Shown piece after piece: positions 108 through 56,232 of a stretch of DNA of 56,232 nucleotides. Both the position numbers and the translations under genes were made by a program. The stretch covers positions 1 to 56,232 of the forward strand of contig JBFLZI010000003.1 in assembly GCA_040756315.1 (NCBI GenBank). Reading direction: 5' to 3'. This DNA comes from Thermodesulfobacteriota bacterium. Lineage in GTDB: Bacteria; Desulfobacterota; Desulfobaccia; Desulfobaccales; 0-14-0-80-60-11. Every line of letters starts with the position of its first letter. Position 1 is the stretch's first letter. The notes under the pieces are model-generated. The model had not been told where the DNA came from and ran no database searches. It was given only the letters and a program-made list of their open reading frames with translations.

Positions 108-237
108 TATTAATTTTATTATAGCGGCCTAAGCAATGGTTATGCCATGATAAAAAGAAAAGGGATGGCCTCAAAGTCGTGCTGTTGGGCTGAGGCTGAT
201 CTTTGGGGTCCTGGAAGACCCTTTCTCAGGCAAGTTA

Positions 238-1745: not shown

Positions 1746-1748
1746 GTT

Positions 1749-1790
1749 AAAAAAGTTGAGTTGGTCCAGGCATGCTGCCGCCTGACCAAC
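1749..1790 (-). terminator. Probable intrinsic terminator downstream of fliS (between convergent genes)
   Basis: Hairpin GTTGGT(C)CAGGC-loop-GCCTGACCAAC at 1760-1790, with an A-run at 1749-1754 that reads as a U-tail on the minus strand. Confidence 0.45.
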
Positions 1791-1830
1791 CCCTCAGCAC
1801 CCCCTGAGCGCCAGGTGTGGGGATTTTAGA

Positions 1831-2280
1831 TCAGACTTTCAGGGAGCCGATGAAATTTTTGGGAGGCTCGGTGGAGAGGTCCGGGTTTTCTTTGAGTTCC
1901 CCGGTCTTCTCCTTCTTGGAGACTTGCAGCCAGGCATCCCGGAGTTGGCTCAGCATGCCGATGGCCTGATCCACCGCGTCCACGTCCCAATTGAGATTGG
2001 CCCGGGTCAGGTGACCGGTCAGGAAGTTATAGAGATGAAACAGGTTGACCGCCATTTCCCGGCCCTCCTGGAAGTTCAGGGAAGCGTTAAGTTCCGCGAT
2101 GATATCCAGGGACTTGCCGATGTATAGACCTTTGCCGGGTGCATCCTTATTGGCCATTTTCTCTTTGGCCCGGTTTAAAAAGGAAATGGCCCCCTCGTAG
2201 AGCATGACCACGATTTGCAGCCGGTCGGCGGTGCTCACCTGGGTGGACATATACTGCTGATGCACAACTTGGGAATTCAT
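1831..2280 (-). CDS. fliS: Flagellin export chaperone FliS
   Basis: Y..TQVSTADRLQIVVMLYEGAI, IIAELNASLN, NLFHLY, L..LRDAW motifs; lies directly downstream of fliD; GAGGAGG SD. Confidence 0.93.
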   Translation of the reverse strand: MNSQVVHQQYMSTQVSTADRLQIVVMLYEGAISFLNRAKEKMANKDAPGKGLYIGKSLDIIAELNASLNFQEGREMAVNLFHLYNFLTGHLTRANLNWDVDAVDQAIGMLSQLRDAWLQVSKKEKTGELKENPDLSTEPPKNFIGSLKV

Positions 2281-2306
2281 GAGCCATTGACCTCCTCTGT
2301 GGCTTT

Positions 2307-2334
2307 AAATCGGCTTCATTAAAAAGTTTCGTTA
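2307..2334 (-). promoter_or_regulatory. Possible weak sigma28 promoter for fliS
   Basis: Minus strand reads TAAC-N16-GCCGATTT, versus consensus TAAA-N15-GCCGATAA. Confidence 0.4.
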
Positions 2335-2439
2335 ATGGGCTTGGATTTTTTCCCGGCAATTTCCTTAAATCCGGGTAGAACTTACCTTCTTACTGACTTA
2401 TTCCTTCGGAAAACCGCCTGACCTGAACGGATTCCCTGC

Positions 2440-8917: not shown

Positions 8918-8923
8918 GGTGGT

Positions 8924-9131
8924 TATACCTTTTTCGGTTTTCGGTTTTCAGTTAAAAGATTGTAGCTTATCAATAAGTTGCAAGCCTGATTGGTAATATT
9001 TGAAAGTGAAAATGGTATTAGTCGGTTTTATGTCAATTTTCGATTCAAATCGAGCCAATTATCGCAGTAACTCATAGATATTACGATCAATTTAACCAAT
9101 AACCGAAAACTGAAAACCGAAAACGGTATTA
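8924..9131. repeat. AT-rich MITE-like element with ATACC/GGTAT ends, inverted heptamer arms and an IHF consensus
   Basis: (TTTTCGG)2-TTTTCAG on the left, CCGAAAA-CTGAAAA-CCGAAAA on the right, TATCAATAAGTTG at 8968-8980. Segment 8924-9020 recurs inverted at ~46438-46527. Confidence 0.7.
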
Positions 9132-10460
9132 CCTATCCACCTTTTGGCCGATATGGAAGTATTGGAAGCCCAATTGGGCCATTTTGCTGGGTTTATAAAG
9201 ATTGCGGCCGTCGAAGATGACCGGCTTCTGCATCAAGGCCAGCATGCGCTCAAAATCAGGTTCCCGGAACCTGGTCCATTCAGTGATGATCAAGAGGGCT
9301 TCGGCGCCTTCCAGGGCCTCGTAGCTGGAGGAGGCAAAAGAGAGGCCGGGCTTTTCCCCGAAATATTGCTGCACCGCGGGCATGGCCTGGGGATCATAGG
9401 CCCTCACTTGCGCGCCCCTCTCCAGCAAGTGGGAGATGATGGTGAGAGACGGGGCTTCCCGGATATCATCGGTTAAGGGCTTGAAAGACAGGCCCCAGAC
9501 GGCCAGGTTCCGGCCCTTCAGGTCATCCCGGAAATACCCTCGCACCCGGTCGATGAACCGGCGGCGCTGGTCCAGGTTGATGGCCTCCGCGGCCTCCAGC
9601 AGGCGAGGGTCATAACCTAGGGATTTGGCGGTATGGATCAGGGCCTGCATGTCTTTGGGGAAACAGGAGCCGCCGTAGCCCACCCCGGGGAACAGAAAAA
9701 GGTGGCCGATGCGGGGGTCCGAACCGATGCCCTGGCGGATCATGGACACGTCCGCGCCGGTCAGGGCGCAGATATTGGCCATTTCGTTGATAAAGGAAAT
9801 CTTGGTGGCTAAAAAGGCATTGGCGGCATATTTGGTGAGTTCGGCGGAGACCACGTCCATAATGATGATGGGATGGTGGGTCCTGACAAAGGGGGCGTAA
9901 AGCTCCTTCATCAACTCCGCCACCCGCACGTCGTCACAGCCGCAAACCACCCGGTCCGGCTTCATGAAGTCCTCCACCGCGGTGCCTTCTTTCAGGAATT
10001 CCGGGTTGGAGACCACGTCAAACTCATGGCTCACTCCCCGGGCCTGAAGTTCCTCAGTGATGACCTGGCGCACCTTGGCCGCGGTGCCCACCGGCACCGT
10101 GGATTTTTCCACGATCACCTTATAGCCGTTCATCAGGCTGCCGATTTCCCTAGCCACCTCCAGGACCGCGGACAGGTCGGCGGAGCCGTCCCGGTCCTGG
10201 GGGGTGCCCACCGCAATGAAACAGAAGAGGCTGGGCTGCACCGCGGCCGCCAAGTCAGTGGTGAATAACAGACGCTTCTCGGCGCTGTTGCGCCGCACAT
10301 AATCTTCCAATCCCGGTTCGTAGATGGGAATGTGGCCCTCCTCCAGGGCCTTGATCTTGTCCGCGTCCTTGTCCACGCAGATCACTTCATTGCCCATCTC
10401 GGCAAAACAGGCCGCGGTCACCAGACCCACGTAGCCGGTGCCAATAATCGCCAATTTCAT
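9129..10460 (-). CDS. ugd: UDP-glucose 6-dehydrogenase
   Basis: IGTGYVG, IAVGTP, KSTVPVGT, SNPEFLKEG, GYGGSCFPKD, FKP.TDDIREAP and DGRN motifs. Confidence 0.95.
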   Translation of the reverse strand: MKLAIIGTGYVGLVTAACFAEMGNEVICVDKDADKIKALEEGHIPIYEPGLEDYVRRNSAEKRLLFTTDLAAAVQPSLFCFIAVGTPQDRDGSADLSAVLEVAREIGSLMNGYKVIVEKSTVPVGTAAKVRQVITEELQARGVSHEFDVVSNPEFLKEGTAVEDFMKPDRVVCGCDDVRVAELMKELYAPFVRTHHPIIIMDVVSAELTKYAANAFLATKISFINEMANICALTGADVSMIRQGIGSDPRIGHLFLFPGVGYGGSCFPKDMQALIHTAKSLGYDPRLLEAAEAINLDQRRRFIDRVRGYFRDDLKGRNLAVWGLSFKPLTDDIREAPSLTIISHLLERGAQVRAYDPQAMPAVQQYFGEKPGLSFASSSYEALEGAEALLIITEWTRFREPDFERMLALMQKPVIFDGRNLYKPSKMAQLGFQYFHIGQKVDR

Positions 10461-10588: not shown

Positions 10589-12826
10589 TTAGAAAGTATT
10601 TTCCCGACCCTCCGGCATGATGATGGGCGGCCGCTTGAATTTCTCCGCCAACCCGGGAATGATGATGGTAAAGCCGATTCTCTTGTCATCCGGCCTCTCG
10701 GTGTAGGACAGGGCGACCCCCCAACACTGGCGTTGAAAAACCAGGCCGTACCGGCTTTCCAGTTTTTTGTTGGTGAGAAAGGTATGGGCGCTGGTGACCC
10801 AGGTCTTCACCGAGGGCAACAGGTCCAGATAAGTGGTGACGTTCACCTGGTTGGCGGACTCCTTAATAAAGAGGTAGCCCACGTTCAGATAATTTTTCCG
10901 GGCCGGGTCGTAGATGGTTAACTTGGTGTTGGCCCTGGTAAAACCTTCATTGTAGGGCGAGGCCCCCAGGTCCAGCCCCAGGGTGAGTTGGCGGAAAGGA
11001 GAAAACTCCGATTCCCCCAAAAAATCGGAAAAGCGGTTTTGGTGGTGGGAGAGGCCGTCCAGCCACATGCTGGTGGAAGTGAAGAAGGCGCTCTGGGAGA
11101 AACGGAGCCACAGCAGATCCCGGACCACGGCCTGGCCCTGGCGATTTTCACCGCGCCGGAGCAGGTTGCTGCTAAAGCCGTAGGTGACGGCGTTCACGCC
11201 CCCCAGGGGGTCGTCCCCATCCCGGATGGGCAGATTGCGGCTGGTGACCTCCCGCCAGCCCAGGTCGAAGGGGTCGAAGTCAGGATAGCGGGAGGCGTTG
11301 TACCGGGGCATGTTCCAGTAGGAGACTTCCGGGCGCAGGGTGTGGCGGTAATAGGTCTGATCAGCGTCGCCCCGGCCATAGTCCTTAAACCACTTGCTGG
11401 CCACGGACACTTTGGCGTCATAGAGCTGGCGGGTCAGATAATTATCCGGGGGTCCCTGGGAGATGTGCTTATCGATGCGGAAGGCCGTCTGCCGATAACC
11501 GATCCGGGAATCCAGGGAGACCCCCGGCAGCGGCTGTAGTTGCCCCCAGAGTTGGGGATGCAGGTCCAGCCGATGCCCGGTCTGCCCCGGTTCGTGATAG
11601 TAATGAATATAGGAGGAATTAAGGCCTATCAGGAAGGGGGTTTTACCAATAGGGTAGGTGACGGTCTCCAGGGACAGGCCGGGAAGCTTATGGTACGGGT
11701 TGGGATCATCGGCCCGGAGTCTTTGATAATAACGGCCATAAGCCGAGAGGTTAAACCAGGGCAGATTGCCGCTGTTCACCAGAGTGGAGACCCGGGTGTT
11801 CACTTCCTCCTGCTCCAGGTCCCGTCCGAATTCCTGGACCAGTTCCCGGGAGTAGCGGTTCAGGCCCAGGTAGCCGAAATTAAAATTTTTCAGGTAGTTG
11901 ATGTCACTGACCCGATCCAGGGTGAGGCGCGTGTGCCAATCCGGAGACCAGGCTTGAGTCAACATCCCGGCCACCAGATAGCGGTGGTTGGTGAGGGCCT
12001 GCTCGTCCCGGTCATTCAAGTAGGCGAAATGGAAATTACCGGCGGAGTCCCCGTGGCCCCGCCAGCGATATTCCACCCCCTGCTGGTAGCCCCGGTTGGT
12101 GATGATATTCTGGTAGAGAGTGGCGTCCATCTGATTGTTGATGGCCCAGTAAAGAGGGATCTCCAAGATGGTGCCCCCGGCCTTGTGCTGGCCGAAGTTG
12201 GGCATCAGGAAGCCGGACTGCCGCACGGTCATGGCCGGCAGAATGACGTAAGGCAGGTAGAAGACCGGCACCCCGGCCAGGCGGAGAAAGGTATTGGGGC
12301 TGGTGGCATAGCCCTCCAGGACCACGTTCAACTTTTGGGCGGAAAAGCTCCACACCGGCAAGTCGGCGTCGCAGGTGGTGATTACGGCCTTCTCCGTATA
12401 ATAGGAGTGTTCGCCGGTCTTGCGGATCAGGGGGCTGTCCACATGAAAGTGGTTTCTTTTCAAAAAGAGGCGGGCGCCCCGGAGTTCCCCGCAGCGGGTG
12501 GCCAGATTGAAGTAACCCGCCTGGCCCGCCAGGATGTCCTCCCCCAGAACGAATAAGACGTGGCCCTGGACCTGGGCGATCTTGGTGATTTCATTCACCT
12601 GCACCTGGTCCGCGGTGATGCGCCGCTCCCCCTGGCGGATTTCCACCTGGCCCACGGCGCTGTAAGTGTGGGTGGTGGCTTCATAGATGATCTGATCGGC
12701 CCGGATGCGCCAGGGCCCGCCTTGGAAGCGTTCCCCGGAGAAGAGTTCCATTTCTTCCGCGCCGGCGCTGGCGGCGGCAAAAAACAGACAGATCAACACC
12801 CAGACCCAGACCCCGCGTCTGCCCAT
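10589..12826 (-). CDS. lptD: LPS-assembly outer membrane protein LptD (OstA)
   Basis: Signal peptide; OstA-like N-terminus (I.ADQI.Y, ITADQV); TTCD..P.W; GVPVFYLPY, RQSGFLMP and PLYWAI motifs; C-terminal QCWG strand. Start taken at ATG 12826 (the ORF track uses 12850). Confidence 0.88.
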   Translation of the reverse strand: MGRRGVWVWVLICLFFAAASAGAEEMELFSGERFQGGPWRIRADQIIYEATTHTYSAVGQVEIRQGERRITADQVQVNEITKIAQVQGHVLFVLGEDILAGQAGYFNLATRCGELRGARLFLKRNHFHVDSPLIRKTGEHSYYTEKAVITTCDADLPVWSFSAQKLNVVLEGYATSPNTFLRLAGVPVFYLPYVILPAMTVRQSGFLMPNFGQHKAGGTILEIPLYWAINNQMDATLYQNIITNRGYQQGVEYRWRGHGDSAGNFHFAYLNDRDEQALTNHRYLVAGMLTQAWSPDWHTRLTLDRVSDINYLKNFNFGYLGLNRYSRELVQEFGRDLEQEEVNTRVSTLVNSGNLPWFNLSAYGRYYQRLRADDPNPYHKLPGLSLETVTYPIGKTPFLIGLNSSYIHYYHEPGQTGHRLDLHPQLWGQLQPLPGVSLDSRIGYRQTAFRIDKHISQGPPDNYLTRQLYDAKVSVASKWFKDYGRGDADQTYYRHTLRPEVSYWNMPRYNASRYPDFDPFDLGWREVTSRNLPIRDGDDPLGGVNAVTYGFSSNLLRRGENRQGQAVVRDLLWLRFSQSAFFTSTSMWLDGLSHHQNRFSDFLGESEFSPFRQLTLGLDLGASPYNEGFTRANTKLTIYDPARKNYLNVGYLFIKESANQVNVTTYLDLLPSVKTWVTSAHTFLTNKKLESRYGLVFQRQCWGVALSYTERPDDKRIGFTIIIPGLAEKFKRPPIIMPEGRENTF

Positions 12827-45816: not shown

Positions 45817-46215
45817 ATGGACACCAAGATTGATTTCCGGACAAAAATATTGGTGGTGGACCATTTCTCCGCCATGAGAAAGATAATCCGCAATATTCTT
45901 AAGCAGATCGGCTTTAATGAGATCGCCGAGGCGGACGACGGTTCTTCCGCCCTGACGATCATCGACCAGGAAAACATCGGCTTGGTGCTGACTGACTGGC
46001 ATCTGCCCCAGATAAGTGGCCTTGAATTACTCAGGAGAATCCGTCACAACGACGCCACCCACCATATTCCGGTATTGATGGTGACCGCGGACGGCAAAAA
46101 AGAAAATATTGTGGAAGCGGTTAAGGCCGGAGTGGACAATTTCGTGGTCAAACCTTTCACCGCCAGTACCGTCAAGGAGAAGGTCGAGCAGGTCTTAGCC
46201 AAACGCCACCCTTAA
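45817..46215 (+). CDS. cheY: CheY-like single-domain response regulator
   Basis: KILVVDHFSAMRKII, LTDWHLP.ISGLELL, PVLMVTA and VKPFTA motifs; near MCP and cheW. Confidence 0.85.
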   Translation: MDTKIDFRTKILVVDHFSAMRKIIRNILKQIGFNEIAEADDGSSALTIIDQENIGLVLTDWHLPQISGLELLRRIRHNDATHHIPVLMVTADGKKENIVEAVKAGVDNFVVKPFTASTVKEKVEQVLAKRHP

Positions 46216-46267
46216 GTGGTGGAGAGACAGCACCGGATGGAAGTAAATGATCTCAAGTTATTAAAGA

Positions 46268-46399
46268 AGCGAGATTCTTCGCTCTATATGGAAATGTAGC
46301 GCCGCCGCCTCGGCGGCGCCTAAACCGCCAAGGGCGGCGGTTCTACAATTTCATGGTCTGTGGCGAGCTTTAGGTCGTGGTGGTTTGCTCAGGATGACA
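46268..46399. repeat. Nested REP-like cluster: GTAG...CTAC palindrome pair inside a split GAGATTCTTCGC...GCTCAGGATGACA repeat
   Basis: GTAGCGCCGCCGCCTCGGCGGCGC at 46296 through GGCGGCGGTTCTAC ending 46346; flanking halves at 46271 and 46387. Confidence 0.55.
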
Positions 46400-46437
46400 T
46401 TGAAAGCGTCCAAGAGGTTTTGCCCTAGCTTCCAAAT

Positions 46438-46527
46438 TACACCATTTTTACTTTCAAATGTTACAAATCATGCTTGCAACTTATTGATAAACTTTAATTT
46501 TTTAACCGAAAACTGAAAACGGTATTA
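46438..46527. repeat. Second (inverted) copy of the MITE-like element at 8924-9020
   Basis: ACCATTTTTACTTTCAAATGTTACAAATCATGCTTGCAACTTATTGATAA...AACCGAAAACTGAAAACGGTATTA aligns to the reverse complement of 8924-9020 with scattered mismatches. Confidence 0.75.
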
Positions 46528-46592
46528 GAGCGGCCGGTCCGGATCAGAAGCGGGTATCTCAAGGCCGTTCTTAAGGGGGATGATAAAAAATT

Positions 46593-46621
46593 TTGCTTTG
46601 TCAGATTAATTGACTTATAAT
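46593..46621 (+). promoter_or_regulatory. sigma70 promoter of the leader-mvhD-fdh operon
   Basis: TTGCTT (46593-98)-N17-TATAAT (46616-21). Confidence 0.75.
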
Positions 46622-46653
46622 TGCGAAAATTTTCCCAAAGGAGGTGATCCCAG

Positions 46654-46788
46654 GTGCATCGGCTCATAGCCATGGTTCGCAGAAAATCCTGAAGCCCAGG
46701 TATACGGGGGGTCTTGGCAAGACCCGCATTACCCAGCCGCTGGATGAGGCCGGGGCAGATCGCCTGGGATAAGGACCGCCAGAATTAA
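46654..46788 (+). CDS. Unannotated leader ORF with in-frame UGA (putative Sec at codon 13): MHRLIAMVRRKS(U)SPGIRGVLARPALPSRWMRPGQIAWDKDRQN
   Basis: Full anti-SD complement AAAGGAGGTGATCC at 46637-50; GTG at 46654; TGA at 46690-92; frame open to TAA at 46786-88. Confidence 0.6.
46709..46725 (+). promoter_or_regulatory. Bacterial SECIS-like hairpin
   Basis: GGGTCTT-GGC-AAGACCC, a perfect 7-bp stem with a G-first loop starting 23 nt after the UGA. Confidence 0.55.
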
Positions 46789-47045
46789 GTTCCTTTAAAC
46801 CTCGCTTTTTCCCCTTCCTCAGGCAAACCTCCGTTACCCGTCTTCACTCCAGCTTCTTTCATGGGACCAGCATACCTGGAGCCGGTTCCCGGCGGAAGAC
46901 CGTCCTTTTTCCCTGGTCAGGCGGTATTCGCCGGCTGTTCCCAGTTTACCTTTTGGCGGCGTTGAGGGTGATACAGCTCCCCTGACCCTTCTGCTTCAGC
47001 TTCCGGGGTGAAGTGTCTCATCTCCTCGCCATGAAGGAGTAGCGG

Positions 47046-47510
47046 ATGACTAAAGAATATTATCCCAAAGTTATCGGCTTCTGCTGCCGCTGGTGCTCCT
47101 ATGCCGGCGCGGACCTGGCCGGGGCCATGCGTCTGCAATATCCCGCCAATATCCGGATCGTCAAAGTGCCCTGCACCGGGCGGGTGGAAACTCTCAATTT
47201 GTTGCAAGCCTTTGAGGCCGGGGCCGACGCCGTCTTTGTTTCAGGCTGTCATGAAGGGGATTGCCATTATCTCACCGGCAACCTCTTTGCCCGGAAACGG
47301 GTGGCCCGGGTAAAAGAAATTCTGGCGGAGATAGGCCTGGAGCCGGAACGCCTGGAAATGTTTCACGTCTCGGCCTCGGAGGGGCCGAAATTCGCCGCCG
47401 TGGCTCGGGAGATGACCGAGCGGGCTTATAAGCTGGGGCCGAACCCGGCGAGGCGGGAAGCCAGACTAGCCTGGCGGGCCGGCGAACCGGCGGTTATTAT
47501 CACCGCCTGA
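47046..47510 (+). CDS. mvhD: Hydrogenase/Hdr-associated [2Fe-2S] subunit MvhD (FlpD), Cys form, copy 1
   Basis: FCCRWCSYAGADLAG, VPCTGRV, GADAVFVSGCHEGDCHY..GN and GLEPERLEM motifs. Confidence 0.92.
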   Translation: MTKEYYPKVIGFCCRWCSYAGADLAGAMRLQYPANIRIVKVPCTGRVETLNLLQAFEAGADAVFVSGCHEGDCHYLTGNLFARKRVARVKEILAEIGLEPERLEMFHVSASEGPKFAAVAREMTERAYKLGPNPARREARLAWRAGEPAVIITA

Positions 47511-47532
47511 AGCAATAGGGAAAGGAGAAGCA

Positions 47533-47997
47533 ATGGGTTCAGACTATTACCCGAAGATCTTGGGATTTTGTTGCCGCTGGTGCTCCTATGCCGGCGCGGA
47601 CCTGGCCGGGGCCATGCGCCTGCAATATCCTCCCTCCGTAAAAATCATGATGGTGCCCTGCACCGGGCGGGTGGACATCCTGCACCTGGTCAAGGCCTTT
47701 GAGGCGGGGGCGGACGCGGTCTTTGTCTCCGGTTGCCATGAGGGCGACTGCCACTATCTCACCGGCAATATCCAGGCCCGCAAGCGGGTGGACAAACTGA
47801 AAAAGGACCTGGCGGCCTTAGGCATTGAACCGGAGCGCCTGGAGATGTTCCACGTCAGTTCCGGGGAAGGCCCCAAATTCGCGGCGGTGTGCCGGGAGAT
47901 GACGGAGCGGGCCTTGAAGCTGGGTCCCAGCCCGGTGAGACGGGAAGCCCGCAAAGCCTGGGAAGCGGCGCAGCCAGCCGCGGCCACGGCTGGGTGA
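47533..47997 (+). CDS. mvhD: MvhD (FlpD), Cys form, copy 2
   Basis: Same motifs as copy 1; AAGGAG SD. Confidence 0.92.
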   Translation: MGSDYYPKILGFCCRWCSYAGADLAGAMRLQYPPSVKIMMVPCTGRVDILHLVKAFEAGADAVFVSGCHEGDCHYLTGNIQARKRVDKLKKDLAALGIEPERLEMFHVSSGEGPKFAAVCREMTERALKLGPSPVRREARKAWEAAQPAAATAG

Positions 47998-48072
47998 AGG
48001 CCAAACCCAGGTCGTAGGTTCGTATTGAGCTGGCTTTGAAAAGAAACTCAGAGAGTGAGGGGGACTTACCCT

Positions 48073-49347
48073 ATGCCGACGCCGTATGACGACATGTGGG
48101 AAAAATTGAACCTGGATTTGCCGGCCCACGAGGGGTTACTGCAAGTATTGGGCAGGTTTTACGGAGACATCTACCTGAGCCAGGAAGGCCGCCTGAAGGG
48201 TATGGAATACCTGGACTTTGTGCTCTCGGAGGTGCACGGCCTGCGCATCAAGGAACTCCAGGAGGCCAAGGCCCAAGGCCGTAAGATCATCGGCACCTTC
48301 TGCGTCTTTGTGCCGGAGGAACTGGTTCTGGCCGCGGACGCCGTCTGCGTGGGCCTCTGCGCCGGGGCCGAGATCGGCGCGGACGCGGCGGAAAAGATCC
48401 TGCCCCGGAACACCTGCGCCCTGATCAAGTCCTTCGTGGGCTTCAAACTGGCCCGCCTCTGCCCCTTCATCGAGTCCTGCGACCTGGTGGTGGGGGAGAC
48501 CACCTGCGACGGCAAAAAGAAGGCCTACGAAATCTTTGCCGACTACGCACCGGTGTACGTCATGGAGATTCCCCAAATGAAGCAGGCCTGCGACCGGGAC
48601 CTGTGGAAGGCGGAGATGGGGCGCTTTCAGGCCAAGATCGAAGAGATCACCGGCAAGACCATCACCGCCGCCAAACTGAAGGAAGCCATCCGGCTGGTGA
48701 ACGCCCGGCGACAGGTCTTACAGCGCCTGAACCGGCTCAGGGCCGTGGTGCCCACCCCCATCTCCGGGCGGGACGTGCTCCTTATCAATCAGATCAGCTT
48801 TTATGACGATCCGGTGCGCTTCACCGCCAAGATGGGGGAACTCTGCGACGAACTGGAAGAGAAGGTCAAGGCGGGCCGGGGTATAGTCCAGGCCGGGACG
48901 CCGCGTCTCATGCTTTCCGGCTGCCCCATGGCCGTGCCCAACTGGAAGCTGCCCTTCCTCATCGAGTCTTCCGGCGCGGTCATCGTGGGGGAAGAGTCTT
49001 GTATCGGCAGCCGCAATATCCGGGACCTGGTGGATGAAACCCCCGACACCCTAGAGGGGCTGTTGGACGCCCTGGTGGACCGTTACTTCAAGATTGACTG
49101 CGCCTGTTTCACCCCCAACGCGGAGCGCCTCACCCATATCGTGGACATGGCCCGGGACCTGAAAGTGAACGGCGTGGTCCACTACGGCCTCTCCTTCTGT
49201 CAGCCCTATGCCATCGAGGCTTTCAAGGTGGCGAAGGCCCTGGAAGCCGCCAAAATTCCGATGTTGGCCATCGAGACGGACTACAGCATGGAGGACGTGG
49301 AGCAGCTCAAGACTCGGGTGGAGGCCTTTCTGGAGATGCTGCACTGA
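48073..49347 (+). CDS. Double-cubane-cluster protein-like anaerobic reductase (2-hydroxyacyl-CoA dehydratase D/HgdB family)
   Basis: GTFCVFVPEE, VGLCAG, PRNTCALIKS, GETTCDGKKK, EESC.G.R, CACFTPN, FCQPY and IETDYS motifs; ATG at 48073. Confidence 0.82.
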   Translation: MPTPYDDMWEKLNLDLPAHEGLLQVLGRFYGDIYLSQEGRLKGMEYLDFVLSEVHGLRIKELQEAKAQGRKIIGTFCVFVPEELVLAADAVCVGLCAGAEIGADAAEKILPRNTCALIKSFVGFKLARLCPFIESCDLVVGETTCDGKKKAYEIFADYAPVYVMEIPQMKQACDRDLWKAEMGRFQAKIEEITGKTITAAKLKEAIRLVNARRQVLQRLNRLRAVVPTPISGRDVLLINQISFYDDPVRFTAKMGELCDELEEKVKAGRGIVQAGTPRLMLSGCPMAVPNWKLPFLIESSGAVIVGEESCIGSRNIRDLVDETPDTLEGLLDALVDRYFKIDCACFTPNAERLTHIVDMARDLKVNGVVHYGLSFCQPYAIEAFKVAKALEAAKIPMLAIETDYSMEDVEQLKTRVEAFLEMLH

Positions 49348-49359
49348 GGTGACGCTGCC

Positions 49360-49596
49360 ATGATTTCTGATAAGGCACCGGTCATTCCCCTGCACCTGCA
49401 CCCGGTATTTCAAGAGCGCCACCGGGTGAATGAACTGAAAAACGCATTGATGGCGGAAACCCTGGCTTACGTCCAGGTGGCCCTGGACAACGCGGCCGGA
49501 CCCGGCGGCGCTTCGCCCCGGGCAGTAAAAATCCTGGAACGGGCTCGCGCCCTTTTGGGAGAAGCCCGAGATCGGCTGGTGCTCGAGTTGTTGTAA
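49360..49596 (+). CDS. Small helical hypothetical protein
   Basis: 78 aa, GAGGTG SD, packed between the reductase and its activator. Confidence 0.5.
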   Translation: MISDKAPVIPLHLHPVFQERHRVNELKNALMAETLAYVQVALDNAAGPGGASPRAVKILERARALLGEARDRLVLELL

Positions 49597-49613
49597 CGGG
49601 TAAAAGGGCATTG

Positions 49614-50390
49614 ATGGGAAACAAGAGCCTGGTAGCCGGTTTGGACATCGGCTCCCGTTCCATTGAACTGGCGGTCTTGGAGGGAGACCGCCTGGTGGAT
49701 TGGGCCAAGGTGCCCACCACCTTCGACCCTCTGGCCCAGTGCCGTCGCCTGTTGAAAGACGTGCGGGCGGAGAGAATGGTAGCCACGGGCTATGGCCGCA
49801 AGCTGGCGCTGGAAAGTCTGAAAGAGCATAGAGTTACGGCCATTACAGAAATTCAGGCTTACGCCCTGGGCGCCCGGCGTCTGGCTCCGGAAACCAGGAC
49901 CGTCCTGGACATCGGCGGCCAGGACACCAAGGTCATCGCCCTGGCCCCGGACGGCAAGGTGGCCAGGTTTGAAATGAACGACCGTTGCGCCGCGGGCACC
50001 GGCAAATTCCTGGAATTCATGGCCCTGGCCCTGCACCTTCCTTTGGAGGAGTTCGGCAGCTTTGCCCTCCAGGGGGAGAGGCGCATCCAGATCAGCAGCA
50101 TGTGCACGGTATTTGCCGAAAGCGAGGCTACCAGCCTCATGGCCCGGGGGGAGGCTCCGGCCAACATCGCCCTGGGGCTGCACCTGGCCATTGTCCAGCG
50201 CACCCTGGCCATGCTCCGGCGGATGGGGGAGGAGCCGCCTCTCCTCTTTGCCGGGGGAGTGGCTCACAACGTCTGCGTCCGGGCCTTGCTGGAAGAGGGG
50301 CTGGGCCAAGAGGTCATCGTGCCCCCCAACCCCGACTTGGTGGGGGCTTTGGGCGCGGCGCTTTATGGGAAAAATCGACAGTCAACCTGA
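49614..50390 (+). CDS. ATP-dependent [4Fe-4S] activator/reductase (HgdC/BadF-BcrAD ASKHA family)
   Basis: GLDIGS, ATGYGR, LDIGGQDTK, MNDRCAAGTGKFLE, SSMCTVFAESE, GGVA.N and GALGAAL motifs. Confidence 0.92.
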   Translation: MGNKSLVAGLDIGSRSIELAVLEGDRLVDWAKVPTTFDPLAQCRRLLKDVRAERMVATGYGRKLALESLKEHRVTAITEIQAYALGARRLAPETRTVLDIGGQDTKVIALAPDGKVARFEMNDRCAAGTGKFLEFMALALHLPLEEFGSFALQGERRIQISSMCTVFAESEATSLMARGEAPANIALGLHLAIVQRTLAMLRRMGEEPPLLFAGGVAHNVCVRALLEEGLGQEVIVPPNPDLVGALGAALYGKNRQST

Positions 50391-50466
50391 GGGAAGACCC
50401 TCAGATAATCGAGACAGAGCAACAAAATTCCGAAAAATTTCTCGTTTTTCGAAAGGAGATCTCGAC

Positions 50467-50685
50467 ATGCCTCTGATCACCGTCAAATTAATTGAAGGCG
50501 TCTATTCCGGGGAGCAGAAGAAGGAAATGATCAAACGGCTTACCGACACCATGGTGGCTCTGGAGGGAGAGCACATGCGCCCGGTCACCTGGGTGGTCAT
50601 CGAAGAAGTCAAGAGCGGCGACTGGGGTGTAGGGGGCAAGGCCTTTTCCTGTGCGGACGTCAAAGCCCTGGCAGGGGATAAGTAA
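50467..50685 (+). CDS. 4-oxalocrotonate tautomerase family protein
   Basis: MPLITVKLIEG (Pro-1), QKKEMI..LTD.M and V.IEEV..GDWGVGG motifs; AAAGGAG SD before ATG 50467. Confidence 0.88.
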   Translation: MPLITVKLIEGVYSGEQKKEMIKRLTDTMVALEGEHMRPVTWVVIEEVKSGDWGVGGKAFSCADVKALAGDK

Positions 50686-52725
50686 GTGGAATCCCGCTTT
50701 GTCCTCACCACTTGCCCCTACTGCGGCTGCGGCTGCGGCATCCTCCTGGAAGTCATGGATGGCCGGCTCGCCGGCTCCTGGCCGGTAAAAACCCATGGGG
50801 TGAGCCAGGGGAGCCTCTGCCTCAAGGGCTGGAGTTCCCATGAGTTCGTGCAGAGCGAGCCGCGCCTTAAGCAGCCGCTCACGCGCCAAAACGGCGACCT
50901 GGTTCCCGCCACCTGGGAGGAAGCCCTGGACCGGGCGGCCCAAGGGTTAAAAGGGGTTTTGGACCGCCACGGGCCGGCCGCGGTGCAGGTATTGTCCTCC
51001 GCCAAGATCACCAATGAAGAAAACTTTCTCATGAACAAATTTGCCCGGGCGGTCATCGGCACCAACAATATCGACCATTGCGCCCGCCTCTGTCACGCCT
51101 CCACCGTCGTGGGTCTGGCCGGGGCCTTCGGTTCCGGGGCCATGACCAACTCCATCGTGGACCTGGAGAATGCCGGGACCATCCTGGTCATCGGCTCCAA
51201 TACCACCGAGGGCCACCCTGTTGCCGCCAAGTGGATTTTCCGGGCTATTGAGCAGGGCGCAAAATTGCTGGTGGCCGATCCCCGCCGGATTCAATTGTCG
51301 GACCTGGCGGAAGTGGTGGTGCAGCAGCGCCCGGGCACTGACGTGGCCCTGATTAACGGCATGATGCATCTCATTATCAAGGAAGGCTGGCACGACCGGG
51401 TGTACGTCAAGGAGCGCACCGAGGGCTTTGAGGCCCTGGCCGCCAAACTGGAGGAGTATCCGCCGGCGAAGGTGGCGGCCATTACCGGGGTGGAGCCCGC
51501 CGAGTTGCGCCGCCTGGCGGAAATTTACGCCACCCACAAGCCCAGCGCCATTGTCTACTCCATGGGCATCACCCAACACATCACCGGGGTGGACAACGTC
51601 AAGTCCCTGGCGAATTTGGCCATGCTCACCGGCAACGTGGGCGTCTCGGGGGGCGGGGTGAACGCGCTCCGGGGACAGAACAACGTCCAGGGCGCCTGCG
51701 ACATGGGCGCGCTGCCCAATGTCTTTTCCGGCTATCAGGCGGTGGCGGACGAGGCGGCCAACGCCAAGTTCTCCCAGGCCTGGGGCCGGGACCTCCCCAA
51801 ACAGCCGGGCCTGACCCTGACGGACATGTTCAACGCCATTGATGCCGGTAAGATCAAGGCCTTGTATATCGTGGGGGAGAACCCCATGGTCACCGAGCCG
51901 GACCTGCATCACGCCGGGGCCGCGCTGAAGAAGCTGGAAGTGCTCATCGTCCAGGATATTTTTCTTTCCGAAACGGCCCGGTTGGCCCAGGTGGTGCTGC
52001 CGGGCGCTTCCTTTGCGGAAAAGAGCGGCACCTTCACCAACACGGAACGGCGGGTGCTGTTGGTGCGCCAGGCCATCCCGCCGGTGGGGGGCGCCCGCCC
52101 GGACTGGCAAATCATCCAGGACCTGGCCGCCCGCCTGGGCTATCCCATGAATTACGCCGGGCCGGAGGAGATTTTTGAGGAAATCCGCACCCTCACCCCC
52201 AGCTACGCGGGCATGACTTACGAAAGGCTTAAAGCCCAAGGGTTGCAGTGGCCCTGTCCCACCCCGGAACATCCCGGCACGCCGTATCTCCACAAAGACC
52301 GCTTCACCCGGGGGAAGGGGCTGTTTCAGGCCATCGACTACAAGCCGCCGGCGGAAGTTGAAGACAAGGAATACCCCATGCTGCTCAGCACCGGGCGCTC
52401 CTTCGCCCATTTCCATTCCGGCACCATGACCCGGGTCTCACCCACCCTGCACCATGAGGTGAAGACGGGGTATGTGGAAATCAACCCGGAAGACGCGGAG
52501 CGGCTGGGAGTGGAAGACGGGGAGCCGGTGCAGGTCAGCTCCCGCCGGGGAAACATCCGCATTCCGGCCAAAATCAGCCAGCGGGTGAACCGGGGCGTGG
52601 TTTTCATTCCCTTTCATTTTGCCGAGTGCGCCGCCAACGTCCTCACCAACCCGGCCCTGGACCCGGTGGCCAAGATTCCGGAATTCAAGGTCTGCGCCGT
52701 CAAGGTGGAAAAAATGGCGGCATAA
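50686..52725 (+). CDS. fdhF: Cytoplasmic Mo/W-bisPGD formate dehydrogenase alpha subunit (FdhF-like), Cys form, copy 1
   Basis: TTCPYCGCGC...LCLKG, DHCARLCHAST, LRGQNNVQGACDMG and PEFKVCAV motifs; no Tat signal. Confidence 0.9.
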   Translation: MESRFVLTTCPYCGCGCGILLEVMDGRLAGSWPVKTHGVSQGSLCLKGWSSHEFVQSEPRLKQPLTRQNGDLVPATWEEALDRAAQGLKGVLDRHGPAAVQVLSSAKITNEENFLMNKFARAVIGTNNIDHCARLCHASTVVGLAGAFGSGAMTNSIVDLENAGTILVIGSNTTEGHPVAAKWIFRAIEQGAKLLVADPRRIQLSDLAEVVVQQRPGTDVALINGMMHLIIKEGWHDRVYVKERTEGFEALAAKLEEYPPAKVAAITGVEPAELRRLAEIYATHKPSAIVYSMGITQHITGVDNVKSLANLAMLTGNVGVSGGGVNALRGQNNVQGACDMGALPNVFSGYQAVADEAANAKFSQAWGRDLPKQPGLTLTDMFNAIDAGKIKALYIVGENPMVTEPDLHHAGAALKKLEVLIVQDIFLSETARLAQVVLPGASFAEKSGTFTNTERRVLLVRQAIPPVGGARPDWQIIQDLAARLGYPMNYAGPEEIFEEIRTLTPSYAGMTYERLKAQGLQWPCPTPEHPGTPYLHKDRFTRGKGLFQAIDYKPPAEVEDKEYPMLLSTGRSFAHFHSGTMTRVSPTLHHEVKTGYVEINPEDAERLGVEDGEPVQVSSRRGNIRIPAKISQRVNRGVVFIPFHFAECAANVLTNPALDPVAKIPEFKVCAVKVEKMAA

Positions 52726-52826
52726 ATGCATGTGGCTAATCAAACTAACAACAAATGTTTGAATCACCTAAGTAGCGGATTCATTTTTGCCGCTTCTTTC
52801 AAAGGATAACGGATAAGGAGACTGAC

Positions 52827-54863
52827 ATGGATTTCCGCTCGGTTGTCACCACCTGCCCCTATTGCGGCGTAGGTTGCAACTTAATCTTCCAGGTGCTGGA
52901 CGGGCAGATCATCGACACCCTGGCCGCGAAGACCGGACCGTCCAATGAAGGGAGGCTCTGTATCAAGGGTTGGAGCGTGCATGAATTTATCCAGCATAAA
53001 GACCGCCTCACCAAACCCCTCATCCGGCGGGGCGGCTCTTTGCAGGAAGCCACCTGGGATCAGGCTTTGGATTTGGCTGCGTCCGAGTTGACCAGGCTCA
53101 AAGAGACCTATGGGCCGGAGAGCGTCGCGTTTGTGGGGTCGGCCCGCTGTCCCAATGAAGAGACCTATGTCTTTCAAAAATTCGCCCGGGCTGTTTTCGG
53201 CCACAATCATGTGGATCACTGCGCCCGTCTCTGTCACGCCCCTACGGTGGCCGGGTTGGCTGTCTCCTTTGGGAGCGGAGCCATGACCAACTCCTTTGCC
53301 GAACTGGAACAGGCCAAGTGCATTTTAGTAATCGGCTCCAACACCACCGTCTCCCACCCTATGGCGGGCATGCGCCTAATGCGGGCCCAGGCCAACGGCG
53401 GCAAGCTCATGGTGGCCGACCCCCGGAAGACCCAGATCGCGAAGTTGGCCGACCTGCACGTGCAGCAGAATCTGGGGACGGACGTGGCCCTGATCAACGG
53501 CCTGATGCACGTCATCTATAAGAACGGCTGGCATAACCAGGCCTTTATCGAAGAGCGCACGGAAAACTTCCCCGCCCTGGTGGAGATAATCGAACAATTC
53601 CCTCCTGAGCGGGTCTCGGAGATCACCGGCGTAGCCGTAGCGGATATCGTCCAGATGGCCGAATGGTACGCCAAGTCGCCGGCCAGCGCCATTGTTTACG
53701 TCTTGGGGATCACCCAGCACAGCACCGGCACGGACAACGTCAAGAGTCTGGCCAACCTGGCCATGCTCTGCGGCCAGATCGGCAGGCCCTCCACCGGAGT
53801 CAATCCCATCCGGGGCCAGAACAACGTGCAGGGGGCCTGCGACATGGGCGCACTGCCCAATGCCTTCCCCGGCTATCAATACGTGAGTGCGCCGGAGTGT
53901 GTGGAGAAATTTGAAAAAGCCTGGAACGCCAAGCTTTCCGGTTCTCCGGGACTCACCATGGTGGAGCAGATCGAAGCCATCCATCAAGGTAAATTCAAGG
54001 GCCTGGTGGTCTTCGGGGCCAACCCGGCGGTGAGCTACCCCAACGTCAACCGGGTGCAGGAGGCTCTGGAATCCTTGGAATTCTTGCTGGTCCTGGATAT
54101 TTTCCCCACATCCACCACGGCCCTGGCCCACGTGGTGCTCCCCGGCGCCTCATTTGCGGAAACGGACGGCACCTTCAGCAGCTCGGAACGCCGGGTGCAG
54201 CGGGTGCGGCAGGCCATCGAGCCTATCGCCGGCAAGGCCAACTGGCAGATTATCCCGGAACTCTCCAGTCGGTTAGGTTATCCCATGCACTATCGGTCCG
54301 CAGAGGAAATTTTCGACGAGATGGCCAGCCTGACTCCGGCTTACGGGGGCATGAGTTACCCTCGCCTGGAGGAGAAAGGACTCTGCTGGCCCTGTCCTAC
54401 TCCGGACCATCCCGGCACTCAGTATTTGCACAAAGACAGGTTTACCCGGGGCCTGGGACTCTTTCAAGCCATCGACTACCGCCCGCCCGCGGAAGGCCCG
54501 GACGCCGACTATCCTTTCTGGCTGACCACCGGGCAAATCTTCTCCCAGTATCTTACCGGCACTATGACCCGGCGCTGCCCCACCCTGCACCAGGAAAACC
54601 CTGAGGTCTTCATCGAAATCAACCCCCAGGATGCCGAACGTCTGCAGATTGAACCGGGAGAAAGTATTCGGGCCAGGAGTCGCCGGGGCAGCATTGAGGT
54701 CAAGGCCTGGGTAACCGACGCGATAAAGCCCGGCGTGGTTTTTATCCCCATGCACTATCTGGAGAACGCCGCCAACCGTCTGACCAACGCGGCCTTGGAC
54801 CCCATCACGAAAACGCCGGAATATAAGGTCTGCGCCGTGAAATTAGAGCGCTTAGCCGCTTAA
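52827..54863 (+). CDS. fdhF: Cytoplasmic formate dehydrogenase alpha subunit (FdhF-like), Cys form, copy 2
   Basis: TTCPYCGVGC...LCIKG, DHCARLCHAPT, IRGQNNVQGACDMG and PEYKVCAV motifs; AAGGAG SD. Confidence 0.9.
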   Translation: MDFRSVVTTCPYCGVGCNLIFQVLDGQIIDTLAAKTGPSNEGRLCIKGWSVHEFIQHKDRLTKPLIRRGGSLQEATWDQALDLAASELTRLKETYGPESVAFVGSARCPNEETYVFQKFARAVFGHNHVDHCARLCHAPTVAGLAVSFGSGAMTNSFAELEQAKCILVIGSNTTVSHPMAGMRLMRAQANGGKLMVADPRKTQIAKLADLHVQQNLGTDVALINGLMHVIYKNGWHNQAFIEERTENFPALVEIIEQFPPERVSEITGVAVADIVQMAEWYAKSPASAIVYVLGITQHSTGTDNVKSLANLAMLCGQIGRPSTGVNPIRGQNNVQGACDMGALPNAFPGYQYVSAPECVEKFEKAWNAKLSGSPGLTMVEQIEAIHQGKFKGLVVFGANPAVSYPNVNRVQEALESLEFLLVLDIFPTSTTALAHVVLPGASFAETDGTFSSSERRVQRVRQAIEPIAGKANWQIIPELSSRLGYPMHYRSAEEIFDEMASLTPAYGGMSYPRLEEKGLCWPCPTPDHPGTQYLHKDRFTRGLGLFQAIDYRPPAEGPDADYPFWLTTGQIFSQYLTGTMTRRCPTLHQENPEVFIEINPQDAERLQIEPGESIRARSRRGSIEVKAWVTDAIKPGVVFIPMHYLENAANRLTNAALDPITKTPEYKVCAVKLERLAA

Positions 54864-54920
54864 GGCGCCAATTGTTTGACCTAAAATTTCCGAGAACCCG
54901 TAGGAAAAGGAGAAATCGCC

Positions 54921-56189
54921 ATGCAACCACTGGATCTCTCTGATCTGCCTGAGAGGCGCCGGAAGAGCATCTTTCGGGACATTATTTCCGAATCTCACTT
55001 GACCGCCTGCTTTACCTGCGGCACCTGCTCCGGGGGCTGCCCCTTGACCGGCATGGAAAGCAGCAAGGATGAGGGCCTGGACGCCCGCAAAGTCATTCGT
55101 ATGGCCGCGTTCGGCCTGGACCAGGAAGTCATCGACTCCCGCTTCGTCTGGTTCTGCACCGGCTGCCAACGCTGCGAGATGGGCTGCCCCATGGGGGTCA
55201 AGCTGGTAAAGGTGTGGATGGCGGCCAAGGCGGCCCGGCCCCGGGACAAGGTGCCCGGCGTCCTCCACAAGGGCGTGGATATGTGTATCCGCACCGGGAA
55301 CAACATGGGCATTCCGGAGGAAGATTACGTCACCCTGCTGGAGGAACTGGGGGAAGAATTGGCGGAGGAGTGCTGCCCCGGTTTCGTTACGCCGGTGGAG
55401 AAGGTGGGCGCGGACTATATCCATTTTCAGAATTCCAAGGAAGCCTATGCCGAACCCGACGACATGAAGTGGTGGTGGAAGATCTTTTACGCGGCTAAAG
55501 CGGACTGGACCACTTCCTCGAAAAACTGGGAGTCGGTGGATTGGGGGATTTTTACTGCCAACATGGAGGCCAGCAAAGAGATCGCCCGGCGCAAGGTGGA
55601 GAACATGAAGCGCCTGAAGGCCAAAACCTTTATTCTGCCGGACTGCGGCGGGGCTTCCTACGGCACCCGCATCAACCTGGAGAAATACTTTAAAGATGAG
55701 TTCGGTCCCAAGACCGGCCACAACTACGTGTATTTCTTTGATGTGCTGCTTAAGTGGCTGGAAGAGGGCCGCATCAAGGTGGACAAGAGCGTCCACGCGG
55801 ACCGCATCGTCACCTGGCACGACTCCTGTAAACACATGCGCTCGGTGTACCTGACCTTCGGGGACGACTCCAACCTGGAGAAGCCCCGGAAGATTCTCTC
55901 ATACCTCATAGATATGAACAACTATCGGGAAATGCCCCACAACCGGTTGGAAAGCTACTGTTGCGGCGCCGGCTCCGGGAACTGGCCCGGACCCTTTGAG
56001 GCCGAAAAGACCGAACACGGCGGCTTCAAGGCCCGGGACATCCAGGCCACCGGCGCGGACCTGGTGGTGGCCGGCTGCTCCAACTGCCGGGACCAGATTA
56101 TGAAGAACCTGAAGGTGAAGTATAAGTTGGACATCGAAGTGAAATATATCTGGGAAATGGTGGCGGACGCCTTGATCCTGGAGAGTTGA
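54921..56189 (+). CDS. HdrC/HdrD(GlpC)-like Fe-S protein: 2x[4Fe-4S] ferredoxin domain plus CCG domain
   Basis: CFTCGTCSGGCP, CTGCQRCEMGCP, PDCGG, WHDSC, CCGAGSG and CSNC motifs. Confidence 0.85.
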   Translation: MQPLDLSDLPERRRKSIFRDIISESHLTACFTCGTCSGGCPLTGMESSKDEGLDARKVIRMAAFGLDQEVIDSRFVWFCTGCQRCEMGCPMGVKLVKVWMAAKAARPRDKVPGVLHKGVDMCIRTGNNMGIPEEDYVTLLEELGEELAEECCPGFVTPVEKVGADYIHFQNSKEAYAEPDDMKWWWKIFYAAKADWTTSSKNWESVDWGIFTANMEASKEIARRKVENMKRLKAKTFILPDCGGASYGTRINLEKYFKDEFGPKTGHNYVYFFDVLLKWLEEGRIKVDKSVHADRIVTWHDSCKHMRSVYLTFGDDSNLEKPRKILSYLIDMNNYREMPHNRLESYCCGAGSGNWPGPFEAEKTEHGGFKARDIQATGADLVVAGCSNCRDQIMKNLKVKYKLDIEVKYIWEMVADALILES

Positions 56190-56202
56190 AGGAAGCATGC
56201 TT

Positions 56203-56232
56203 GTGGGGGGAGGGCCAGGGACCTGAGGTCCC
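56203..56232. repeat. Start of another GGGGGAGGGCC intergenic repeat, truncated by window end
   Basis: GGGGGGAGGGCCAGGGACCTGAGGTCCC matches the arm at ~7093. Confidence 0.45.

Follow-up and report, generated by a model that had tools for sequence, protein, structure and literature searches.

A UGA-containing leader upstream of an operon for Cys-type formate dehydrogenase, MvhD and HdrD-like subunits and a double-cubane-cluster reductase: a candidate selenium-responsive island in a Thermodesulfobacteriota bacterium

The window analysed here, 56,232 bases long, is the whole of contig C3 in the genome of a Thermodesulfobacteriota bacterium (3.30 Mb in 324 contigs; 99.98% complete). Nine plus-strand genes with intergenic gaps of 0–101 bases occupy its positions 47046–56189 and are preceded by a leader RNA element with a short open reading frame (ORF) that contains a UGA codon. 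Two MvhD proteins, two formate dehydrogenase (FDH) alpha subunits (FdhA) and an HdrD-like protein encoded in this operon have cysteine (Cys) where paralogs from the same genome have codons for selenocysteine (Sec), and they stand together with a double-cubane-cluster reductase (DCCP). This arrangement points to an operon that responds to selenium status. Protein families were assigned by Pfam and NCBIfam profile scans, the latter with curated cut-offs, and the leader was identified with a covariance model (R1) built from 12 copies. The features are as follows.

46636–46772, +: leader RNA element with an internal hairpin (R1, 130 bits)
46640–46644, +: Shine–Dalgarno (SD) sequence of the leader, GGAGG, 9 nucleotides (nt) before the GTG
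46654–46788, +: leader ORF, comprising GTG and 11 codons, UGA at 46690–46692, 31 codons and TAA at 46786–46788
46709–46725, +: hairpin resembling a Sec insertion sequence (SECIS), GGGUCUU-GGC-AAGACCC, starting 16 nt past the UGA
47046–47510, +: MvhD1 (PF02662, 173.9 bits), Cys at both known Sec sites
47533–47997, +: MvhD2 (PF02662, 170 bits), Cys at both known Sec sites
48055–49347, +: DCCP (NF040772, 488.8 bits; cut-off 350)
49360–49596, +: orf78, a 78-amino-acid protein between DCCP and activase, with no Pfam or NCBIfam match
49611–50390, +: ATP-dependent activase, the reductase partner of DCCP (TIGR00241, 207.4 bits; cut-off 125.4)
50467–50685, +: 4-oxalocrotonate tautomerase family protein (PF01361, 46.8 bits; under the NCBIfam cut-offs)
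50686–52725, +: FdhA1, Cys-type FDH alpha subunit (TIGR01591, 840.4 bits; cut-off 666.25)
52827–54863, +: FdhA2, Cys-type FDH alpha subunit (TIGR01591, 821.0 bits; cut-off 666.25)
54921–56189, +: Cys-type HdrD/DsrK/HmcF-like protein with two [4Fe-4S] motifs and a CCG domain (CCG and Fer4_8 matches)
56190–56232, no strand assigned: half of a dispersed REP-like palindrome at the contig end

Both MvhD proteins match PF02662 over its full length (profile positions 1–123); with the VhuD equivalog they score 155 and 151 bits, under its cut-off of 215. FdhA1 and FdhA2 cover positions 1–672 of the TIGR01591 profile and share the motif HCARLCHA, which corresponds to the ligand motif HxARxU/CH. The HdrD-like protein is assigned at the domain level only (CCG, Fer4_8) and to no equivalog, with scores far below the cut-offs for HmcF (162.8 bits; cut-off 750), DsrK (137.9; 400) and TmcB (112.9; 735). 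A first-pass annotation, made from the letters of the DNA, had listed two MvhD, two FdhA and one CCG-domain protein, and the profile matches bear out this inventory.

The same annotation had placed Cys at the usual Sec sites of these proteins and had seen no UGA interrupting their genes. Both observations hold. No in-frame stop is present in the genes for MvhD1, MvhD2, FdhA1, FdhA2 or the HdrD-like protein, and in a tblastn search of each operon protein against the whole genome the in-frame TGA codons of the paralogs align exactly with the Cys residues of the operon proteins. FdhA1 (HCARL-C-HA) has its Sec paralog on contig C39 (73% identity) and FdhA2 on C65 (77%), each with TGA at the Cys codon. 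The MvhD site CCRW-C is matched by TGA in paralogs on C100 and C13 (59–66% identity; 66% between MvhD2 and MvhD(Sec) on C100), and the site G-C-HEGDC by TGA in paralogs on C13 and C43. The site LPD-C-GG of the HdrD-like protein is matched by the one TGA in a paralog on C181 (47% identity). Thus, a UGA-containing paralog was found for every Cys protein, as had been expected, while a complete Hdr-type operon surrounds only some of them. An example is C13, where a gene for a 1486-amino-acid HdrA-like fusion (HdrL) is followed by those for MvhD(Sec), MetV and MetF. The Sec-type FdhA gene on C65 stands alone, beside an FmdE-MoCF fusion and an ABC transporter, and its counterpart on C39 is situated at the edge of that contig.

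FdhA1 and FdhA2 share 56% identity with each other and 73–77% with their respective Sec copies, so that each pairs with a Sec copy and not with its neighbour. On the same figures, an origin of the two genes by tandem duplication was rejected. The Cys residues at the Sec sites are invariant in 20 cluster-type MvhD sequences (C17 and C68, with C14, C43 and C73 likewise invariant) and in 18 HdrD-like orthologs (C242). Among 41 related genomes surveyed for the HdrD-like protein and FdhA1, about 32 contain a Sec-type HdrD-like protein and 10 the Cys type (at least 77% identity). Orthologs of FdhA1 are of the Sec type in 14 genomes; the Cys type occurs in two of 40 relatives, besides the genome studied here. 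Sec forms are therefore widespread among relatives and Cys forms few, which marks the latter as accessory paralogs travelling with the island.

Several components of the Sec-decoding machinery were detected. These include SelB (359 bits, over the cut-off), a SelD gene that itself carries one TGA, and a candidate tRNA-Sec (UCA) with the anticodon loop CUUCAAA, which scored 46.6 bits with the Rfam model, just under the cut-off of 47. ARAGORN found no tRNA-Sec in this genome. Together, SelB, the Sec-containing SelD and the candidate tRNA indicate that the genome can decode Sec.

The leader has the layout of a small translated gene with a Sec codon. A UGA-containing leader had been noted at the first pass, and the comparison confirms it as an ORF composed of SD sequence, GTG, UGA and hairpin, with a frame that stays open before and after the UGA in all 35 unique copies. 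The GTG is followed by an in-frame TGA in each of the 35, namely 36 nt later in 34 copies and 30 nt later in one. Between GTG and UGA, frame 0 contains no stop codon in any copy, against 34 and 9 stops in frames +1 and +2; from the UGA to the end of the model the corresponding numbers are 0, 42 and 12. The ORF ends 5–48 nt beyond the 3' arm of a long-range helix, P1, in which the region of the GUG start pairs with an arm at approximately 46754–46768; in C3 the TAA sits just past this arm. In the two leader helices 93.9% of the aligned cells are paired, as compared with 89.0% in shuffled alignments (0 of 500 as high) and 28–56% with the partner strand slid. Nine pairs change on both sides, and compensatory changes occur in the hairpin as well, one pair being AU in 18 copies and GC in 17. 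The free energy of the whole leader fold is no better than that of shuffled sequences (z = -0.10), and it is the comparative structure alone that is informative. These data establish the structure and the reading frame of the leader.

The encoded peptide contains a conserved stretch, K-S-U-S-x-G-x-R-G-A-L. Farther on, the 3' arm is kept as nucleotides in three different reading frames, which marks it as an RNA element that a read-through ribosome must cross. The hairpin loop is GGC or GGU, and three sequence features expected of a bacterial SECIS are present: an in-frame UGA, a hairpin a short way downstream and G residues in the apical loop. The YUGG motif lies 18–24 nt past the UGA in the selenoprotein genes of this genome, and UUGG lies at +22 in the leader. 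The hairpin of MvhD(Sec), GGACCU-GGC-AGGUUC, resembles that of the leader and has the same GGC loop. A CCUCC-rich box is conserved downstream of the leader. From these sequence features we conclude that the leader is most simply read as a predicted translated ORF whose extension would depend on Sec insertion; SelB would presumably bind its hairpin, and a regulatory effect on the genes downstream is suggested. We considered a molybdenum or tungsten cofactor (Moco/Tuco) riboswitch as well and rejected it, since no Rfam match was obtained and the reading frame is conserved: a scan of 46200–47100 with E-values up to 1 gave two chance-level matches outside the element and no Moco or other riboswitch. 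A scan of the leader region for promoter-like sites was negative.

The distribution of the leader suggests a regulon. It was detected in 59 of 68 genomes of the same family, with 1–7 copies each, and in none of 14 genomes of the sister family. Two sets of loci were also compared, namely 80 loci with DCCP orthologs (71–86% identity) and 34 metagenome loci with a Cys-type HdrD-like protein (at least 69% identity); the leader is present in 14 of the former and 20 of the latter. The first gene after 34 leader copies encodes MvhD (11), MauE/DoxX (10), an HdrA-like protein (5), DCCP (4), a [NiFe]-hydrogenase small subunit (1) or TusA/YedF (1). In the cases checked, MauE/DoxX is followed by a rhodanese. 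Thus, the leader precedes YedF, MauE/rhodanese pairs, DCCP alone, or sets of HdrA, MvhD, FdhA and HdrD genes. The genome studied here has two copies. The second one (G000:C44:13494–13631, minus strand, equal to 9495–9632 of locus L118; 68.5 bits) lies directly 5' of a YedF gene (TIGR03527, 202 bits; cut-off 110), which is accompanied by a gene for a 262-amino-acid protein of no known family. The regulon, as predicted from these neighbourhoods, appears to mix genes for selenium uptake and carriers with Cys versions of selenoprotein families and with DCCP.

Several further arrangements of the leader were observed. In locus L123 (G018:C127), copies at 1501–1638 (minus strand) and 1795–1930 (plus strand) stand back to back about 160 nt apart and face outward; they apparently control divergent operons, HdrA-like on one side and MvhD-like on the other. 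In locus L011, a second leader (12396–12532, equal to 6995–7131 of L104, minus strand) lies directly 3' of the activase gene of the same cluster and precedes genes for a xylose-isomerase-like TIM-barrel protein and a cofactor-independent phosphoglycerate-mutase-like protein (apgM subfamily, 333 bits). The same TIM-barrel and apgM-like gene pair follows the HdrD-like gene in G004, L158 and L172. The copy that precedes the [NiFe]-hydrogenase small-subunit gene (PF01058) belongs to a relative of the family.

None of the other four operon genes encodes a member of a selenoprotein family. The first-pass annotation had proposed that the operon gathers only Sec-dependent subunits. This does not hold, as 48055–50685 encodes DCCP, orf78, the activase and the tautomerase, all of which had been overlooked. 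The true start of DCCP may be the ATG at residue 7. Its seven Cys residues are spaced by 18, 18, 29, 164, 32 and 32 residues, which is near, yet not a literal match to, the pattern CX19CX18-19CX29CX166-170CX32-34CX32C as printed in the main text of Haft & Gwadz. A tblastn search revealed no DCCP paralog in the same genome. In 10 of the 80 DCCP loci a homolog of orf78 likewise stands between DCCP and activase, and a tautomerase ortholog is found within the clusters of L011, L164, L169 and L170. Neither FdhB nor an NADH module, hdrBC or mvhAG is encoded within the window. The earlier statement that partner subunits are missing thus stands for these genes; the words 'lone' and 'without hdrA' apply to the contig only. 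A structure prediction for a complex of HdrD-like protein and MvhD (alignments A10 and A9) gave a score of 0.00 and speaks neither for nor against such a complex. Upstream of the operon lies an unrelated chemotaxis operon (methyl-accepting chemotaxis protein, CheW and response regulator). A GC-rich inverted repeat at 46290–46345 (GCGCCGCCGCCTCGGCGGCGC ... GGGCGGCGG), 3' of the response-regulator gene, looks like the terminator of that operon and would mark where a separate transcription unit begins with the leader.

Contig C3 ends 43 bases past the HdrD-like gene, in the half palindrome listed above. The full repeat, GGGGGGAGGGCCAGGGACC-TGA-GGTCCCTGCCCTCCCCCC, evidently breaks the assembly: 1462 copies of the core motif are present in the genome, and 154 of the 648 contig ends have one within 60 nt. 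Examples are the tail of C100 and the heads of C65 and C39. The head of C42 carries a repeat arm of the kind opposite to that at the tail of C3. On C42, bases 65–3148 encode the closest homolog, within this genome, of the HdrA-like protein of L011. The Cys in its motif PTNDCSM-C-ILSPK corresponds to TGA in three paralogs, of which two are encoded on C13 and one on C23; with the latter, a Sec form, it shares 77% identity. The HdrA gene on C42 is followed by genes for a putative selenium transporter of the YedE family (TIGR04112, 482.7 bits; cut-off 200), a selenium/sulfur (Se/S) carrier (PF11823) and a Carb_kinase-like protein. A direct junction of C3 and C42 seems fairly probable, as suggested by the gene order in L165, L153, L155 and G004. 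A Cys-type HdrA had been predicted to lie beyond position 56232; the one on C42 very probably lies just past the end of C3, to judge from that gene order. None of the metagenome contigs scanned contains an exact match to the final 37 nt of the HdrD-like gene. On C23, a gene for a NotI-family restriction endonuclease (PF12183, 217 bits; G000:C23, L114 10730–11656) is located just downstream of an HdrA(Sec)-MvhD-Fer4 trio.

In relatives, the genes of the operon form a recurrent island. The activase gene is adjacent to that for DCCP in 69 of the 80 DCCP loci, and the same set includes cluster-type MvhD in seven loci, the HdrD-like protein in five and FdhA in one. The 34 HdrD-like loci contain MvhD (24), DCCP (11), FdhA (4), YedE (4) and HdrA (3). 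The following gene orders were found.

L011: MvhD-MvhD-HdrD-tautomerase-DCCP-orf78-activase, the cluster being headed by an HdrA-like gene
L156, L172 and L180: MvhD-DCCP-orf78-activase-HdrD
G008: HdrA-MvhD-x-FdhA2-MvhD-MvhD-FdhA1-HdrD, without DCCP
L165, a metagenome contig, all on one strand: leader-MvhD-FdhA-HdrD-HdrA-YedE-Se/S carrier-Carb_kinase-like
L153 and L155: HdrD-YedE-Se/S carrier-Carb_kinase-like
G004: DCCP-orf78-activase-HdrD-...-YedE-...-SelD-Se/S carrier-Carb_kinase-like

Genes that are kept together and yet reordered between loci show the pattern of functionally linked genes. MvhD and the HdrD-like protein, in some cases together with FdhA and HdrA, could be partners in a separate complex. 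The leader and the island genes of relatives are also linked with YedE, YedF, the DUF3343 Se/S carrier, SelD and rhodanese. The SelD gene in the island of G004 (L108, G004:C13, 7481–8404; TIGR00476, 342 bits) was called without the first approximately 40 profile positions, which might reflect an in-frame TGA close to the N-terminus. A second gene with AIRS and AIRS_C domains (L106, 14508–15482, in G027) is matched by Pfam only and is no more than a possible SelD. In locus L018, a transglutaminase-like gene (8822–9841) lies between those for the HdrD-like protein and DCCP; Lin et al. (2015; PMC5322559) give a transglutaminase-like enzyme as a STRING partner of YedF in their Table 1.

The explanation that we favour, if modestly, is that the region is the larger, upstream part of an operon controlled by selenium status, in which an island that combines a formate-fed, all-Cys module with DCCP is switched on when selenium is scarce. 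If UGA is decoded as Sec, the ribosome would run through the 3' arm of P1, which otherwise locks the leader's own start; a ribosome terminating at UGA would leave P1 intact. The leader would thus report the capacity for Sec decoding. The CCUCC-rich box could mask either the SD sequence of the leader or that of the next gene. With selenium, translation would occupy the leader SD and leave the box available to cover the SD in front of the first structural gene; when selenium is lacking, the stop at UGA would allow P1 and the pairing of SD and box to close the leader, and the structural gene would be freed. The genes downstream would provide an electron-input module independent of selenium, made up of two FdhA, two MvhD and the HdrD-like protein, all with Cys, with a Cys-type HdrA very probably following on C42, and in the same operon an ATP-driven double-cubane reductase with its activase. 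Scarce selenium would then turn the island on, low-potential electrons from formate would be delivered without selenoproteins, and metabolism of the Hdr/FDH type could be kept running. The HdrD-like protein and DCCP may help in the uptake or reduction of selenium for SelD. The direction of regulation is an inference, as is the substrate of DCCP; induction at low selenium is proposed because both kinds of cargo, selenium uptake and carrier proteins on the one hand and Cys versions on the other, make sense under that condition. A wider version, in which a ribosome-mediated cis sensor of selenium, present throughout one family of Desulfobaccales-like bacteria in 1–7 copies per genome, governs a starvation regulon of YedE, YedF, rhodanese, Cys stand-ins and DCCP, with DCCP serving reductive mobilization of selenium for SelD, is offered tentatively; we think it possible rather than probable.

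Several observations weigh against the selenium-controlled operon. In the leader region, the one weak terminator-like site (46891–46904) does not exceed what shuffled sequences give and is not retained in L012 or L008. Neither a convincing terminator nor any other expression platform came to light, and the mode and direction of action of the leader are therefore left to inference. The leader pair counts come from related sequences, 35 distinct copies whose alignment had been fitted to the covariance model, and the relatives behind the neighbourhood counts are likewise not independent. Paralogs of MvhD with Cys at both sites and of HdrA with Cys also occur outside the island in this genome, so that Cys status alone is weak evidence. 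Among all contig heads the best exact overlap with the tail of C3 is 17 nt, and none was found with C42; the proposed adjacency draws on synteny in other organisms. Among the sequencing runs listed for this stretch there is no RNA run. Families such as YedE, TusA, rhodanese and DsrK-like proteins also serve sulfur chemistry.

The last point leads to an explanation by sulfur trafficking, in which thiosulfate or persulfide would be taken up and reduced through YedE, TusA, rhodanese and a DsrK-like reductase, with the UGA leader coupling the island to general translation status. The Pfam names Sulf_transp, TusA and Rhodanese agree with it, as do HmcF and DsrK as the best scores of the HdrD-like protein. 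However, the NCBIfam equivalogs are YedF and the selenium-type YedE (483 bits as against 40 for TsuA), a UGA followed by a SECIS-like hairpin belongs specifically to Sec decoding, and SelD lies in the cluster of G004. We regard this explanation as very unlikely. A non-selenium role might also be sought in an ordinary catabolic or detoxifying pathway, with a formate-driven DCCP acting on some other substrate, the tautomerase handling the product, Cys being incidental, and the leader regulating independently of selenium supply or simply encoding a small selenoprotein. The core of DCCP and activase is indeed conserved mostly without MvhD or HdrD neighbours, the leader peptide is conserved, and physiological substrates of DCCP are described as unknown in the main text of Haft & Gwadz. 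Against it stand the conservation of the 3' arm as RNA in three frames, several leader copies per genome before different operons, YedF in the regulon and YedE downstream in L165, and the tight linkage of DCCP to SelD across genomes reported in the same text. We consider this account decidedly unlikely.

The first-pass annotation had favoured a set of spare Cys subunits, each replacing its Sec counterpart in a separate complex (MetVF-Hdr, Flox/Hdr, FDH and others) under selenium limitation. The leader fits selenium control, and the Sec paralogs are spread over at least five contigs, some of them in complete complexes. Moreover, the Cys copies are nearer to their Sec copies (FdhA1 and C39, 73%; FdhA2 and C65, 77%; HdrA on C42 and C23, 77%) than FdhA1 and FdhA2 are to each other (56%). 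Such dispersal says little, however, since Sec-type FdhA genes also stand without partner genes. At 47% and 61–66% identity to their Sec paralogs, the HdrD-like and MvhD proteins are distant for drop-in replacement, and they co-travel in many genomes with or without FdhA and HdrA, as parts of a single complex could. Four operon genes lie outside any selenoprotein family. The annotation had named two findings that would speak against it, a lack of Sec paralogs and partner subunits located immediately downstream: the paralogs do exist, and for HdrA a downstream position is probable. The part of the proposal that survives is that Cys counterparts are very likely tied to selenium supply via the leader; what replaces the loose kit is a conserved island with DCCP and selenium-trafficking genes. 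As a whole, we consider the spare-subunit model unlikely.

The proposed selenium-controlled operon has counterparts among known regulatory systems. In attenuation of the trp and his operons, a short translated leader senses the supply of charged tRNA, and in the 5' region of Escherichia coli selAB a SECIS-like element is used for regulation. The leader described here resembles both in being a short leader that is predicted to be translated and in the apparent use of a SECIS-like RNA for control. It differs in that the sensed codon would be UGA/Sec, that no terminator/antiterminator pair was found, and that the leader's own start would be locked by a long-range helix.

In Methanococcus, the operons vhc and frc encode Cys isoenzymes and are repressed by selenium via HrsM/LysR_Se (Lin et al., 2015; PMC5322559). 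Methanococcus likewise has Sec-type enzymes and dedicated operons of Cys paralogs, including an MvhD-type subunit, for use when selenium is lacking. Control there is exerted by a LysR-type protein, whereas here we propose a cis-acting UGA/SECIS leader ORF, and the set additionally includes FdhA, HdrA, the HdrD-like protein, DCCP and selenium-trafficking genes. Treponema primitia has the paralogs fdhF(Sec) and fdhF(Cys) under selenium control (PMC3892789); it shares with our organism Sec and Cys paralogs of FdhA type in one genome and an effect of selenium through translation at UGA. In T. primitia the UGA lies inside the enzyme gene, while here a separate leader ORF has the UGA and the enzyme genes are free of it.

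Electron-bifurcating complexes of formate dehydrogenase, MvhD and HdrABC are known from methanogens (in part, PMC10805699). The island similarly encodes FdhA, MvhD, HdrA and a CCG-domain subunit, with formate as the likely low-potential donor; unlike those complexes it has neither FdhB nor separate HdrB and HdrC, and has an HdrD/DsrK-like fusion instead; a complex of these proteins is a prediction from the genes. For DCCP, the reference is the structurally characterized protein of Carboxydothermus hydrogenoformans and its ATP-dependent reductase (PMC9351452, PMC7317905). The protein studied here is likewise a member of NF040772 with seven Cys residues at nearly the same spacing and an adjacent activase; in contrast, its gene lies in an operon with FdhA, MvhD and HdrD-like genes behind a UGA leader. 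According to the main text of Haft & Gwadz (2022; bioRxiv 10.1101/2022.07.06.499078), 955 of 970 strong NF040772 proteins occur in SelD-containing genomes, and a link to selenium was proposed. Our data agree with that text in tying NF040772 to selenium use and to neighbouring selenium genes. They differ from the SAO locus treated there in that no SAO genes were seen, the link being made by a regulatory element and by neighbours such as YedE, YedF and SelD. The word 'leader' does not occur in that main text. Genes for HgdB-like proteins and activases also appear among the STRING partners of YedE, YedF and DUF3343 (Lin et al., 2015; PMC5322559).

Cys stand-ins and their control by selenium are known from few organisms, where control acts via protein regulators or via a UGA within the enzyme gene. 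A full-text search of the literature turned up no account in which a UGA/SECIS leader ORF acts as a regulator; if the proposed role is true, the leader would be the first sensor of selenium status that acts in cis through RNA and the ribosome. It would also tie DCCP, a protein without known physiological substrate, to selenium by regulation as well as by gene neighbourhood, which fits the unexplained genome-wide correlation between DCCP and SelD described in the main text of Haft & Gwadz (2022). Two questions would thereby become testable, namely the mechanism of selenium sensing in bacteria and the role of DCCP.

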